This document shows positions 7,678 to 14,197 of a DNA stretch of 64,000 nucleotides, piece by piece. The stretch is taken from positions 1,009-65,008 of the forward strand of contig DASRFY010000063.1 in the NCBI GenBank assembly GCA_035651315.1. The letters are read 5' to 3'. The number at the start of each line of letters is the position of its first letter. The stretch's first letter is position 1. Made by a program: the position numbers and the translations under genes. Origin of the DNA: Burkholderiales bacterium (GTDB lineage: Bacteria; Pseudomonadota; Gammaproteobacteria; Burkholderiales; Eutrophovitaceae). Below the pieces are notes generated by a model. That model saw nothing but the letters and a program-made list of their open reading frames with translations. It had not been told where the DNA came from and ran no database searches.

Positions 7678-7878
7678 TGCATCCTCCGGTCTTCTCGGCA
7701 AGTAGCGCGAGTATAGCGCTGCCGGCTCGAGATCGCCGTCCGCGTCCTGTGCGGTGTCGCCCCGAGGCAACACCGCGGGAACCGGATCGCAGCCGAAAAC
7801 GTCGCGCCCGTTGCCGCACAGGAACTTTTCCCCGTCGTGGAAATCATGACAGGCTGCGATTCATGTCGTGAAAATCGG

Positions 7879-7893
7879 TGGCACGCAAATTGC
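7879..7893 (+). promoter_or_regulatory. candidate sigma-54 (-24/-12) promoter TGGCACgcaaaTTGC
   Basis: Exact TGGCAC-N5-TTGC spacing. It ends 65 nt upstream of the ATG at 7959 on the same strand. Confidence 0.5.
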
Positions 7894-7958
7894 GAAACGC
7901 TTTGCGGGCGAAGTTCCGCCTCCCGCATGCAGTTGTCGGCTTCAAAGGGAAAGTTGCA

Positions 7959-8879
7959 ATGCTCAAACATCAAGAGACGAACGTCCTGTCCTGGATCGGC
8001 GCCGTGCTCTCGCATGGCATCATCACGCTGCTCGCCATCGGCATCGCCTTTACGCTGCCGGTCGCGGCGCAGTACATCCTTTATCAGTGGTGGCCGCGGG
8101 TCGAAACCGATTCCCACCTGCTGCTGACGACCGAGACCGTGGTCGCGTCCATGCTGGTGGTCCTGTTCAACCTGGCCAAGGTTTCCTGGGACAACCGGCG
8201 CTTCGTCGGCAGCGCGAGGGTCGCCTCGCTGGTCCATGCCAGGAGCAACGAAAGCTGGCTGTCCCGGTGGCGTAGCGCATCGCTGTTCCGCAGGCTGCCC
8301 GCCGCGCGCGACGCCTACGTCATGACGGTCACCGGTTACGATACCTTCATCGACAGGCGCAGCCTGTTTCGCGCACCGCTGGCGACCGCCTGCGAAATCC
8401 GCGTCATGCTGCTCAATCCGGCGAGCGACGGCGCGCGCCGGCGCATCGACTCGCTTCCCGGGAAGAATGCGACGGCGCAGACCTTCGCCAGGGAGATCGA
8501 GGCAAGCATCGGCTATCTCGGCGCGCTTCGCAAAGCGGGCAAGAAGGTGACGCTGCGGTTCTATAATCATCCGCCGTTCTGGAAGCTCGTCGTGCTGGGC
8601 GATCACGTCTGGGTGCAGTACTGCCACGCCGGCTGCGAAATCAGACGCTCGCCGGAATACGTGTTCGCCATGCATCGCCGCCATCCCAGGCGCGGACTGT
8701 TCGTTCCCTTTTTCATGTACTTTCTCGAGAAATGGAGCGAGGCGCATCACCCCGAGTTCGACTTCGACACCCGCCAGCTCGTCTATCGCGACCGCGAGGG
8801 CAGGGAGCTGAAGCGCTTGCCGTTCGTCAATCCGCTCGAGCGGGCGAATGCCGCCGAAGACGTGCGGCGCGCGGCCTGA
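7959..8879 (+). CDS. membrane protein with C-terminal PLD-like/DUF5919-like soluble domain (function unknown)
   Basis: Two to three N-terminal TM helices followed by a ~220-aa domain ('IRVMLLNPAS...RFYNHPPFWKLVVLGDHVWVQYC'). ATG 7959 follows AGGGAAAG. The GTG 7878 start would overlap the sigma-54 box. Confidence 0.65.
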   Translation: MLKHQETNVLSWIGAVLSHGIITLLAIGIAFTLPVAAQYILYQWWPRVETDSHLLLTTETVVASMLVVLFNLAKVSWDNRRFVGSARVASLVHARSNESWLSRWRSASLFRRLPAARDAYVMTVTGYDTFIDRRSLFRAPLATACEIRVMLLNPASDGARRRIDSLPGKNATAQTFAREIEASIGYLGALRKAGKKVTLRFYNHPPFWKLVVLGDHVWVQYCHAGCEIRRSPEYVFAMHRRHPRRGLFVPFFMYFLEKWSEAHHPEFDFDTRQLVYRDREGRELKRLPFVNPLERANAAEDVRRAA

Positions 8880-8988: not shown

Positions 8989-10542
8989 ATGACGCCGCTC
9001 GCCACCCTCGTCGAGGTCTCGCGACGCGTCGCGGAGACCTCGAGCCGTCTCGCCAAGATCGATGCGCTGGCGGCGTGCCTGCGCGCGCTGGCGCCGGACG
9101 AGATCGCAATCGCGGTGCCGTTTCTGTCCGGAGAAACGCGCCAAGGCAGGCTCGGGATCGGGGACGCCGCGTTGCAGGAAGCGCGCACCGGCGCGGCTTC
9201 GCAGCCGATGCTCACGCTCGCGGAAACGGATTCCGTGCTGGGGCACGTGGCTGCCGTCAGCGGCAAGGGCGCAGTAGCCGAACGCGGCAGGCTGCTCGGC
9301 GAGCTGTTCCGTCGCGCGACGCCAGCCGAGCAGGACTTTCTGCTGCGGCTTCTGGTGGGCGAGCTGCGCCAGGGCGCGCTGGAAGGAGTGATGCTCGAAG
9401 CGGTTGCGCGGGCGGCGGCGGTGCCGATCGCCGAAGTGCGACGCGCGGCGATGCTGGCCGGCGACATCGCGCAGGTCGCCCGCGCGGCATTTGCCGGCGG
9501 CCTGCGGGCGGTGCGCGGCTTTTCCCTGCGCGTGCTGCAGCCCGTGCAGCCGATGCTGGCGCAGACCGCGGAAGACGTCGGCGACGCGCTGACGCGGCTC
9601 GGCGCCGCGGCGTTCGAATGGAAACTCGACGGCGCGCGAGTCCAGGTGCACAAGGCGGGCGACGAAGTGCGCGTCTTCACCCGCAGCCTCAACGACGTCA
9701 CCGCCGCCGTGCCGGAAGTGGTCGAGGCGGTGCGCAGCGCGGCCGCACGCGACCTCGTCCTCGACGGGGAGACGATCGCGCTCGCGCCGGGCGGCGCGCC
9801 GCAGCCGTTTCAGGTCACCATGCGCCGCTTCGGACGCAGACTCGACGTCGACGCGATGCGGCAGACGCTTCCGCTGTCGGTGTTCTTCTTCGACTGCCTG
9901 CACCGGGACGGCGAAGCGCTTGCCGATCATCCGGCGCAGGAACGCTTCGGGGCGCTGGGCGAGGTCGTGCCGCGCGCGCTGCTGGTTCCGCGGCTGCTGA
10001 CCCGGGACCCTGCCGGCGCGCAAGCTTTTTTCGAGCAGGCGCTGCAGCACGGCCACGAGGGCGTGATGGCGAAGGCGCTCGATGCGCCCTACGAGGCGGG
10101 CAGCCGCGGCGCGAGCTGGCTGAAGATCAAGCGTGCGCACACCCTGGACCTCGTGGTGCTGGCGGCAGAGTGGGGACACGGACGGCGCAGAGGATGGTTG
10201 TCGAACCTGCACCTCGGCGCGCGCGATTCGTCCTCCGGAGGCTTCGTCATGCTCGGCAAGACCTTCAAGGGCCTGACCGACGAGACGCTGCAATGGCAGA
10301 CGCGCGAGCTGCTGGCGCGGGAAATCGGGCGCGACGCCTACACGGTGCACGTGCGCCCGGAGCTCGTCGTCGAGATCGCGTTCAACGAATTGCAGGCGAG
10401 CCCGCATTATCCGGGCGGCCTGGCGTTGCGCTTTGCGCGCGTCAAGGGCTACCGGCCCGACAAGAAGCCGGAGGAAGCCGACACGATCGACACCGTGCGC
10501 GCGATCTACGGAGCGCAGATCGAGCGGGCGCGGGGTCCCTGA
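8989..10542 (+). CDS. ATP-dependent DNA ligase (LigB/Lig1-like, with N-terminal DNA-binding domain)
   Basis: Motif I 'EWKLDGARV', 'EGVMAK', 'WLKIK', and an OB-fold tail. 517 aa. Confidence 0.9.
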   Translation: MTPLATLVEVSRRVAETSSRLAKIDALAACLRALAPDEIAIAVPFLSGETRQGRLGIGDAALQEARTGAASQPMLTLAETDSVLGHVAAVSGKGAVAERGRLLGELFRRATPAEQDFLLRLLVGELRQGALEGVMLEAVARAAAVPIAEVRRAAMLAGDIAQVARAAFAGGLRAVRGFSLRVLQPVQPMLAQTAEDVGDALTRLGAAAFEWKLDGARVQVHKAGDEVRVFTRSLNDVTAAVPEVVEAVRSAAARDLVLDGETIALAPGGAPQPFQVTMRRFGRRLDVDAMRQTLPLSVFFFDCLHRDGEALADHPAQERFGALGEVVPRALLVPRLLTRDPAGAQAFFEQALQHGHEGVMAKALDAPYEAGSRGASWLKIKRAHTLDLVVLAAEWGHGRRRGWLSNLHLGARDSSSGGFVMLGKTFKGLTDETLQWQTRELLAREIGRDAYTVHVRPELVVEIAFNELQASPHYPGGLALRFARVKGYRPDKKPEEADTIDTVRAIYGAQIERARGP

Positions 10543-10606
10543 TCGGCGCCGTCCTTGCGCTCGACGCCGCCGAGGAGGAACTCGCCGTGGCGTTGCCCCT
10601 GAGAAG

Positions 10607-10640
10607 AAAAAAACGGGAACGCCGCGTGGCGTCCCCTTTT
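10607..10640. terminator. bidirectional intrinsic terminator between convergent genes
   Basis: A7-GGGAACGCC-gcgt-GGCGTCCCC-TTTT hairpin between the ligase (+) and the Cys-rich peptide gene (-). Confidence 0.55.
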
Positions 10641-10656
10641 GCGCTGCGACCGGCGA

Positions 10657-10908
10657 TCAGCCGCGGCCGAGCCTGTCGACGCAGGCCTTCTCGGTCATCT
10701 TCACGAAGCCCTGGCCCTTGCAGGTGTTGTGGCCCTTGCATGAGTTCATGGATGTCTTGCACTCGGCCTGGCCCTTGCAGGCGTTCGCCCCGTAACACTT
10801 CACCATCACTTCTTCCGCCGAGGTGGTGCTCACCGTTCCCACCGCGAACAGCGTCGCGGCCGCAGTGGCGAGCGCCACGCCGATCAGTTTGCGCCGATTC
10901 AGTTCCAT
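10657..10908 (-). CDS. secreted six-Cys peptide, BufA2/bufferin-like RiPP precursor candidate
   Basis: Strong RBS AAGGAGAG and a Sec signal ending TSA-EE. The core is 'KCYGANACKGQAECKTSMNSCKGHNTCKGQGF...KAC' with a repeated N-x-C-K-G motif. Confidence 0.75.
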   Translation of the reverse strand: MELNRRKLIGVALATAAATLFAVGTVSTTSAEEVMVKCYGANACKGQAECKTSMNSCKGHNTCKGQGFVKMTEKACVDRLGRG

Positions 10909-11112
10909 CTCCAGCTCTCCTTGTTGTCGCGATTGATCACAGGGCGGAGGTCCGGTCCCGAATTCACCGATCGGTACCGTGGTCCGCCCGTCATTCGCGG
11001 CGGTTCGACGCGCCGCGCGAACCCCGCCGCCGGGTGAGGTCCCCGGCTGCGGCGTTCGTCGCTAGATACGCGCGAGCCTTACGGGTGGATGCGCCGGCGC
11101 CGCGGCTGCGGT

Positions 11113-12069
11113 TTACTCCAATCCCAGGAGACGGGCGGGATTGCGGCGCATCATCCGGTCCAGCTCGGCATCGCCGATGCCTTCCTGCTTGAGCCCCTGC
11201 ACCAGCAGCAGGTAGCCGTCGGGATGCGTCGGGTTGCCGGTCTGGCCGAGGTCGGTGGCGAGCACCATGTGCTCGGCGCCGACCTCCCGGATCGCCCGCG
11301 CCATGTCCTTGATCGAGACGCGATGCCAGGGGCGCATCCAGGGCAGGTGCGCCTCCGGCCCCATCAGATGATTGATGAAATCGAGCTCGAGATAGCCGCC
11401 CAGCCTTGCCACCTCCTTCATCTGCCCGGTCGACATGTTCGGCACCTGCGCCATGGCGTGCGTGACCAGCATGTTCTTCACGCCCAGCTCGGCGCCGCGC
11501 CGGATTACCGCGAGGCATTCGTCGGCGGCGAGGTGGCCGGTCTCCAGCACCAGATTCTCGCGCGCCACGATCTTGAGCACCGCCTCGGTCTCCGGCGTCA
11601 CCTTGCCGTCGACCGCCGCGCGGATGCCGCTGCCCGGCTCGTGGAAGGTCTTCATGTGGTTGTCCGCGTCGATGGTGGGCAGCCACACGACTTTCCCGTA
11701 GCGGCCGGACATGCGCGCCATCCGTTCCACGGCCGCCGGGTTGATTCCGCCCACCGCCTGGTTCAGCACGATGCCGCCGAATACCTCGATGCCGGGCACG
11801 ACTTCGCGCACGAGCGCGGCGCGATCGGCGGTGCCGGTGACGTGGTTCTTGAGCACGATCGCGCGCAGCCCCATCCGCTTGGCGAGCGTGGCGGCCTCGA
11901 TGTCCGTCACGCTGCGGCCGAAGACGTCCGGCGCCGAATGGACGTGGAAGTCGATGGCGCCTTCGATCGGGCTCTTGACCGGCGGCGGCGGCGGAAACAC
12001 CCGCAGGTCCTGCGCGCCGGCAAGCGGCGCCATCGCGAGCAGCAAGACGAGCAGCCTTCCGATCCTCAT
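11113..12069 (-). CDS. exported amidohydrolase-fold (DUF6282-like) TIM-barrel protein
   Basis: Signal peptide 'LLVLLLAMAPLAGAQD', metal motif 'IDFHVHSAPD', 'MGLRAIVLKNH'. RBS GGGGAGGAA. Confidence 0.75.
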   Translation of the reverse strand: MRIGRLLVLLLAMAPLAGAQDLRVFPPPPPVKSPIEGAIDFHVHSAPDVFGRSVTDIEAATLAKRMGLRAIVLKNHVTGTADRAALVREVVPGIEVFGGIVLNQAVGGINPAAVERMARMSGRYGKVVWLPTIDADNHMKTFHEPGSGIRAAVDGKVTPETEAVLKIVARENLVLETGHLAADECLAVIRRGAELGVKNMLVTHAMAQVPNMSTGQMKEVARLGGYLELDFINHLMGPEAHLPWMRPWHRVSIKDMARAIREVGAEHMVLATDLGQTGNPTHPDGYLLLVQGLKQEGIGDAELDRMMRRNPARLLGLE

Positions 12070-12129
12070 GTCGTTTCCTCCCCTGTTGCGATGTTTTCCG
12101 GCGCCGGTCGATATCCCGGCCGCCGCGCC

Positions 12130-12426
12130 TCAGATCAGCCGCTCGCGGTCGAAGAACGCCTTGCGCCAGCGGGTGACGGTGACCTGCTCGAACAATCCCG
12201 CCTTGGTGAACGGGTCCTCGGCGACGAAGCGCTCGGCTTGCGCGCGGTCGTCGGTGTCCACCAGCAGAATCCCGCCGTGGCCGCCGCTGCCGTCGTCGTC
12301 GATCAGCGCGCCGGCGGCGAGCAGCAGGTGCTTGTTCGCGGTCAGGTAGTCGATGTGCGCCTGGCGGTTGGCGGCGCGGATCGCGCCCGCGCCCGGCTTG
12401 TCGCGGGTCTGGATGGCGTAGGGCAT
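12130..12426 (-). CDS. YciI family protein
   Basis: 98 aa with 'HIDYL...DPF..AGLF' YciI pattern. RBS GGAGGAGGAAAG. Confidence 0.85.
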   Translation of the reverse strand: MPYAIQTRDKPGAGAIRAANRQAHIDYLTANKHLLLAAGALIDDDGSGGHGGILLVDTDDRAQAERFVAEDPFTKAGLFEQVTVTRWRKAFFDRERLI

Positions 12427-12535
12427 CGTGGCTTTCCTCCTCCGTGCCGCGGATGATAGCCGAGCGGAGGCGTGCCTTGGCGCGCCGCTTCGCGCATAAT
12501 TGCGCGCTTTCCGATTTCCGGCGACCAGGACTCCA

Positions 12536-14197
<1,662 letters not shown>

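Follow-up and report, generated by a model that had tools for sequence, protein, structure and literature searches.

A stand-alone BufA2-type bufferin precursor gene in a Burkholderiales genome and its possible maturation in trans

How a bufferin precursor might be matured when none of its usual enzymes is encoded beside it is the question raised by a small gene in the window, as we call the whole stretch of 64,000 nucleotides analysed here. Bufferins, which protect bacteria from copper stress, make up the largest group of MNIO-modified RiPPs known. For thiooxazoles to form on BufA1, BufB and BufC are both necessary and sufficient; the signal peptide of BufA1 has been found to be dispensable and its core to be involved in recognition (PMC11626156). 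In the Buf2 system of Caulobacter, it is the four central Cys residues that undergo modification, and a disulfide joins the first to the last (PMC11626156).

Stand-alone bufferin precursor genes have already been described and accepted as family members in a recent survey (PMC12452194, Microb Genom 2025), according to which such precursors may either depend on an MNIO encoded at another locus or stay unmodified. The same two alternatives, trans or unmodified, apply to the window gene. That survey also raised the question of whether the many stand-alone precursors really undergo maturation in trans, and within the accessible text of the bufferin literature no experimental demonstration of trans modification of a stand-alone precursor was found for any organism. 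The genome to which the window belongs (G000) is a MAG of the Burkholderiales, and the sequencing runs that match it best come from mine metagenomes; it is ~68% complete, and absences elsewhere in it are therefore provisional, so that it may contain further bufBC pairs or a cis-encoded bufA2.

The window gene and its product

The gene occupies 10657..10908 on the reverse strand (83 codons and a stop), a call supported by the reading frame itself, by a family-model match and by dN/dS, and its translation is a protein of 83 aa, MELNRRKLIGVALATAAATLFAVGTVSTTSAEEVMVKCYGANACKGQAECKTSMNSCKGHNTCKGQGFVKMTEKACVDRLGRG. The ATG lies 7 nt downstream of a Shine-Dalgarno sequence, AAGGAGA (10916..10922, reverse strand), so that the 83-aa ORF and ribosome-binding site described in a first-pass annotation of the window were both recovered. 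Residues 1-31 (10816..10908, reverse strand) constitute a predicted signal peptide, MELNRRK followed by LIGVALATAAATLFAVGTV and then STTSA, in which one can recognise by eye an n-region with basic residues, an h-region rich in Ala and Thr, and the T-S-A preceding E32. Signal peptidase I is predicted to cut after this T-S-A, leaving a core of 52 aa (10660..10815, reverse strand), which holds 7 Lys, 7 Gly and, exactly where the first-pass annotation had placed them, six Cys at positions 38, 44, 50, 57, 63 and 76 in a repeat of C-x5-C-K-G type. Unlike the operon-encoded BufA2 proteins of relatives, the window protein has no lipobox.

The first-pass annotation had taken the peptide for a BufA2 (BUF_6/12Cys) precursor, and a profile search bears this out: the protein matches the NCBIfam model NF050166 (Cu_RiPP_BufA2, in full "BufA2 family periplasmic bufferin-type metallophore") with 85.8 bits against a cut-off of 60 (E 1.8e-24), residues 10-81 aligning with positions 1-76 of the 79 in the profile. 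A Pfam search of the protein gave no significant match. Across the 49 homologues, which take in operon-encoded copies and span both of the subtypes described below, the six Cys, K45, G46, K51, K58, G59, N61, K64 and G67 are invariant. Judged by its profile score and its core, the window gene is a genuine BufA2-type bufferin precursor. It has the six-Cys pattern of the BufA2 protein CCNA_03001 of Caulobacter vibrioides and, as predicted by eye, likewise an N-terminal signal peptide (PMC11626156). Bufferins run in the order strand, Cys-rich loop, strand, helix, with the last Cys on the short helix, and a low-confidence AlphaFold2 model of the window protein (mean pLDDT 53) tentatively shows this order as well (strands at 33-37 and 68-72, helix at 73-80). 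BufA1 proteins (DUF2282, gig operons) are likewise secreted Cys-containing RiPP precursors matured by an MNIO and a DUF2063 protein, but they carry four Cys and have a family model of their own; membership of that family was ruled out by the absence of PF10048 (DUF2282) from the window protein's Pfam matches at E<=1 and by its six Cys instead of four.

Export by the Tat system was considered, as suggested by the NRRKLIG start and a weak match to TAT_signal (PF10518, 14.3 bits against a cut-off of 22.7), and was rejected. The Tat signal model TIGR01409 gave no match to the protein, and many close homologues have RK, SK, RV or RN where the window protein has RR. With the RR unconserved and every Tat model below its cut-off, export by Sec is more likely.

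Downstream, and convergent with bufA2 as the first-pass annotation had also noted, lies a gene resembling those of ATP-dependent DNA ligases (517 aa, 8989..10542, forward strand); its product is 71% identical to a protein with DNA_ligase_A_N/M/C domains from an orthologous locus, and it stands outside the bufferin system. An intrinsic-terminator-like hairpin with a T-run (10615..10636, reverse strand) starts 21 nt past the bufA2 stop codon, between the two genes; it is flanked by an A-run opposite its T-run and may serve both of them. Upstream lies a gene for a secreted DUF6282/phosphotriesterase-like protein (11113..12069, reverse strand; PF19799, 220 bits), which was rejected as a partner enzyme because orthologous loci have other neighbours. 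A haem-oxygenase-like PF14518 gene was also set aside as a partner, as it adjoins the orthologue in one relative and does not adjoin the window gene. At that orthologous locus, on a JGI metagenome contig (L064:8213-12421), the bufA2 orthologue and a 286-aa PF14518 gene have undergone a recent segmental duplication in which the two PF14518 copies are identical; in the window's own genome just an N-terminal fragment of the PF14518 gene turns up, where contig C106 starts, beside a PAS-GGDEF-EAL gene. Between the HD-domain and ligase genes of the window, a 333-aa ORF (7878-8879, forward strand) has a coding-like composition and no match in Pfam or NCBIfam. A sigma-70 promoter was sought in 10300-12600 and none was found there, and the sole Rfam match obtained with the long 5' region of the gene was a sub-threshold sRNA located outside that region. 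The window locus was recovered with 0 differences in Logan contigs from runs of two different studies.

Comparison with six orthologues gave dN/dS values of 0.12-0.57 with synonymous sites near saturation, which indicates that the gene is under purifying selection. Four soil/sediment metatranscriptomes yielded assembled contigs that cover the gene together with its 5' region (10642-11082) at 92-97% identity; none of them reaches into the flanking genes, where homology may simply end. From these contigs, which can contain DNA, the copies of close relatives, as distinct from that of the window's own strain, appear to be transcribed. A 33-nt stretch at 10708-10740, which covers the C-K-G-x-x-x-C region, attracts many unrelated metatranscriptome contigs, with a summed depth of ~111-124 in two of the four runs, and BufA2-like transcripts appear to be abundant and diverse in those soil/sediment samples.

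Buf genes elsewhere in the genome

The first-pass annotation had found no DUF692- or DUF2063-like ORF in the window and had called the gene an orphan. When the entire genome was searched in six frames with PF05114 (MNIO) and PF09836 (DUF2063), nothing was returned on contig C63, the 66.6-kb contig that holds the window, so the term is apt locally, the gene having no adjoining bufB or bufC; it does not hold genome-wide, as MNIO and DUF2063 genes are present on other contigs. The scan for bufBC pairs and further bufA copies, proposed in that annotation as a check, yielded two MNIO loci (on C84 and C153), a bufA1 and two further bufA2 genes.

The first MNIO locus, on C84, is a complete buf1 operon of bufA1 (DUF2282, 89 bits), bufB1, bufC1 and doxX. 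The second is cut short, contig C153 stopping within the MNIO gene, which is preceded by genes for an ECF sigma factor and a short zf-HC2 anti-sigma factor. The complete bufB2 locus is found on public contigs whose anti-sigma protein is the same and which agree with C153 at every position over 2239 bp. Read across both (C153:6724-8327, completed by L076:795-3444), the operon runs sigma, anti-sigma, bufB2, bufC2. It encodes an ECF sigma factor of 202 aa (TIGR02943), a zf-HC2 (ZAS) anti-sigma factor of 63 aa, a BufB2 of 302 aa (L076:1757-2665) that scores 402.5 bits against NF050167 (MNIO_BufB, cut-off 310) and a BufC2 of 260 aa (L076:2662-3444) with a PF09836 match. A PCuAC-like (PF04314) copper-chaperone gene lies downstream of bufC2 in convergent orientation. 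We take the sigma/anti-sigma system to resemble the sigmaE/MseR system of Neisseria and the RpoQ system of Cupriavidus; a literature search gave no usable ECF group assignment or published promoter for this sigma factor.

What this operon does not contain is a precursor gene. In a genome of the same genus (G001), the syntenic locus, recognisable by its argB, HAD, slmA and thiF neighbours, has a bufA2 of lipoprotein type (88 aa) inserted between the gene for the anti-sigma factor and bufB2; about 306 bp containing this gene are missing at the G000 locus, and no bufA2 remnant was found in the three forward frames between the two genes there. The bufA2-less junction was recovered with 0 differences in contigs from the runs of two studies. 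As far as its sequence tells, the bufB2C2 operon of G000 is intact and has lost its own bufA2. The depths of the contigs carrying the window locus and the bufB2C2 locus track each other across three runs, and this parallel supports the presence of both loci in a single genome.

A search of the genome with the BufA2 model gave three copies in total, the window gene and one each on C105 and C211. The C105 copy (92 aa, NF050166 94.8 bits) belongs to a different lineage and begins 129 nt past a cusCBA-like efflux operon. The region C105:1534-8195 holds, in order, a 122-aa secreted Cys-containing ORF, cusC-, cusB- and cusA-like genes and the bufA2. From this order, the bufferin precursor may be the last gene of the efflux operon. 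The C211 copy (78121-78363, reverse strand; NF050166 76.7 bits) is a dispersed bufA2 with five Cys, the equivalent of Cys57 having been deleted, and adjoins merR-merT-merP-merA. MerC-Buf2 fusions are recorded in mercury clusters in the survey (PMC12452194).

Two subtypes and a shared promoter-like motif

In 40 relatives, BufA2 matches are found mostly ~100 bp upstream of an MNIO gene, and dispersed copies recur. Two subtypes were distinguished in the CYGAN-core clade, from the 21 closest loci of species-representative genomes and, in addition, metagenome contigs. The lipoprotein type has a lipobox (LF-x-AGC), a length of 86-89 aa and the sequence KTAMN, and 10 of its 11 members directly precede bufB2. 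The signal-peptidase-I (SPI) type, to which the window gene belongs, is 81-84 aa long with KTSMN, and none of its 14 members occupies that slot: 10 are dispersed, two lie past bufC2 and two are divergent from the operon. At L070 and L071 the order is bufA2(lipo)-bufB2-bufC2-bufA2(SPI), with the SPI copy 220-230 bp after bufC2, and at L050 and L052 the divergent SPI copy is 0.6-0.8 kb from bufB2. A Fisher 2x2 test of subtype against slot gives ~3e-6, a value computed on phylogenetically dependent rows that are better read as one event; in a maximum-likelihood tree of the core only, all 14 SPI-type copies fall in one clade (89/78) within the CYGAN clade (99/98).

The two types are otherwise close. 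Lipoprotein-type proteins such as that encoded on G001 contig C100 have a core ~70-75% identical to that of the window protein, with the same invariant Cys, Lys and Gly residues and the same motif upstream, and differ from it in the lipobox (LFIAGC in the operon copy), a longer linker and KTAMN in place of KTSMN. About 16% of Buf2 precursors are given as lipoproteins in the survey (PMC12452194). The bufA2-bufB2-bufC2 operon is also present in all five checkable genomes that have a dispersed copy, and the BufB2-type neighbours of the SPI paralogue in relatives are 66-78% identical to the BufB2 of G001, compared with ~46% for the BufB1 type. The dispersed locus itself has been kept across species, as a 76%-identical orthologue sits, like the window gene, among EttA, YciI, NMO, ligase and HD genes, and another orthologue sits between NMO and HD genes.

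An ECF-type promoter-like motif, GCATCC-N16-CGTAT, is located at 11066..11092 (reverse strand), 158-184 nt upstream of the ATG of the window gene and just past the end of the DUF6282 coding sequence that lies upstream. Transcription is predicted to start about 150 nt ahead of the ATG. When the upstream regions of orthologues are aligned, conservation is low overall and a TGAATCC/GCATCC box stays fixed 16 nt from CGTA. The motif was first noticed on the very sequences later scored, and the counts that follow are to be read with this in mind. The strict form occurs five times in G000, against a mean of 1.0 for forty shuffled-box controls, and three of the five sites are upstream of the window bufA2, bufB2 and bufA1. 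A looser form, G[AC]ATCC-N16-CGTA, has 11 sites in the genome, of which about three are clearly intragenic and two doubtful (one on C102 with no nearby ORF, one on C173); the 64-kb window contains one, with 0.23 expected. GAATCC-N16-CGTA is found 145 nt upstream of the C211 bufA2, and a looser-motif site lies 36 nt before the 122-aa ORF that opens the cus-like operon ending in the C105 bufA2. Three other looser sites precede genes of different kinds: one upstream of an msrP/yedY-like molybdoenzyme gene (Oxidored_molyb match) with msrQ (C187:10500, reverse strand), one at the start of a radical-SAM/DUF3641 gene (C175:10486, forward strand) and one 450 nt before a DsbD/ScsB-like gene (C173:12225, forward strand). 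By this placement the three genes are candidate members of the same regulon.

Beyond this genome, the motif is present in 26 of 52 regions of 300 nt upstream of the bufA2 genes of relatives, compared with 0.025 for shuffles, 0 for reversed sequences and 4 on the opposite strand. The carriers include nearly all of the CYGAN clade, operon-encoded and dispersed copies alike, and yield a cross-species consensus of T-G-C/A-A-T-C-C-R-N15-C-G-T-A-T in which the spacers are unrelated. The 10-base pattern is unspecific on its own in G001, where most of its 18 sites are antisense and intragenic; the intergenic ones, about four, include those of both bufA2 genes. The arrangement mirrors the sigmaF regulon of Caulobacter, whose promoter is GTAACC-N16-CGAA, in its architecture of a hexamer, 16 nt and a tetramer and in its yedY-like, buf1 and buf2 targets (PMC3511200). 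We infer that the motif is read by the ECF sigma factor encoded next to bufB2. The region upstream of the sigma gene on C153 lacks the motif and looks sigma-70-like.

Proposed maturation in trans and its alternatives

The reading that best explains these observations, to which we give a probability of roughly 0.65, is that the window peptide is a Sec-exported precursor, belongs to an ECF stress regulon and is matured in trans by BufB2C2. The window bufA2 would be transcribed alone from an ECF-sigma-type promoter, GCATCC-N16-CGTAT, and the same motif would bring about co-expression of bufB2-bufC2, bufA1BCD, cusCBA-bufA2, another dispersed bufA2 and the msrP-like gene. In the cytoplasm, BufB2 (the MNIO) and BufC2 (the DUF2063 protein) would convert the four central Cys of the core to 5-thiooxazoles, after which the modified peptide would be exported by Sec and its signal peptide removed after TSA. 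With a disulfide between Cys38 and Cys76, the 52-aa product would buffer excess periplasmic copper and possibly other soft metals. A role in copper is suggested indirectly, by the motif in common with the buf operons, the cus-like operon and the msrP-like gene and by the mine origin of the metagenome. The reading of the motif by the sigma factor, the modification in trans, the chemistry and the metal are all elements that we infer.

Since the signal peptide of BufA1 is dispensable and recognition involves its core (PMC11626156), a conserved core would in principle be enough. The invariant core, the intact precursor-less bufB2C2 operon, the physical association of the paralogue with bufB2C2 in relatives and the shared motif agree with a route in which BufB2C2 first matures the peptide and Sec then exports it. 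The first-pass annotation had left three options for the peptide, namely modification by a distant bufBC pair, maturation by a different route and function as an unmodified disulfide or metal-binding peptide, and the evidence favours the first of them because the bufB2C2 operon is intact and precursor-less, shares its motif with the window gene and, in relatives, has the SPI paralogue beside it.

In an alternative that we regard as unlikely, only the operon-encoded paralogues are MNIO substrates, and the window peptide reaches the periplasm without modification, to serve there as a Cys-thiolate or disulfide-rich peptide with a metal-binding or redox function. The lack of an enzyme in cis would fit this, as would the C211 copy, which has lost one of its central Cys and has nonetheless been kept, beside a mer operon. 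Such a role would, however, leave unexplained why dispersed and operon-encoded copies agree without exception in the residues that surround the four central Cys, why the window gene and the maturase operon have a promoter motif in common and why an intact bufB2C2 has been retained with no substrate in cis. It also sits poorly with Table 3 of the survey, in which 0 of 864 complete genomes with Buf2 genes are without an MNIO (PMC12452194).

Modification in trans by BufB1C1 rather than BufB2C2 is more doubtful still. The buf1 operon on C84 is complete and carries GCATCC-N16-CGTAT as well, from which co-expression with the window gene would follow, but BufA1 already serves as the substrate of these enzymes, the paralogue in relatives adjoins genes of BufB2C2 type and not of BufB1 type, and the Buf1- and Buf2-associated MNIOs, which lie in one large cluster of the MNIO similarity network, are coloured there as separate groups (PMC11626156). 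We consider it very improbable that the window gene is a duplicate now silent or in decay and devoid of function. Its position outside any cluster and the existence of three such copies, one of them short of a Cys, might suggest as much, but its frame is intact, it is accompanied by a ribosome-binding site, a conserved promoter motif and a terminator, and dN/dS is 0.12-0.57 against orthologues with near-saturated synonymous sites. Orthologues in other species have much the same genes around them (EttA, YciI, NMO, ligase, HD), and transcripts were found for close relatives.

A wider picture can also be drawn, for and against which we see equal odds. The Buf2 pathway of this lineage would be a regulon rather than a gene cluster, in which a maturase-only operon serves several dispersed precursors that have each acquired the same ECF promoter. 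The precursors would be specialised, the operon-encoded one (lost here) as an anchored lipoprotein and the others as soluble forms beside cus-like, mer and stand-alone loci. The genome offers a clean natural test case for the point raised by the survey, combining a precursor-less bufB2C2, three dispersed bufA2 genes as candidate substrates and a shared motif that predicts co-expression. At stake are whether RiPP genome mining based on adjacency undercounts bufferin products and whether soluble and lipid-anchored bufferins divide labour; the known chemistry and concept of bufferins are left unchanged by this case.

Stand-alone bufferin genes and the idea of their modification in trans are already known in general terms from the survey (PMC12452194). 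Measured against the accessible text of that source, and as far as found, four points go beyond it: the dispersed copies form one non-lipoprotein lineage and the operon slot is held by the lipoprotein type; TGCATCC-N16-CGTAT is conserved upstream of maturase operons as well as of dispersed precursors; one such operon has lost its precursor; and an ECF sigma/ZAS anti-sigma pair precedes a Buf2 operon. On the last of these, the accessible text reports sigma/anti-sigma genes for Buf1 clusters and not for Buf2 clusters (PMC12452194), whereas the bufB2C2 operon of G000 is preceded by such a pair. A Buf1 unit with regulators of its own is seen in G001 (L096, contig C96:22000-25200), where the buf1 operon follows its own ECF sigma gene and a gene for a 242-aa anti-sigma factor, and a GCATCC-N17-CGTA box stands directly before the likely start of the sigma gene. 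This placement suggests that the G001 buf1 unit is autoregulated, unlike the buf2 arrangement.
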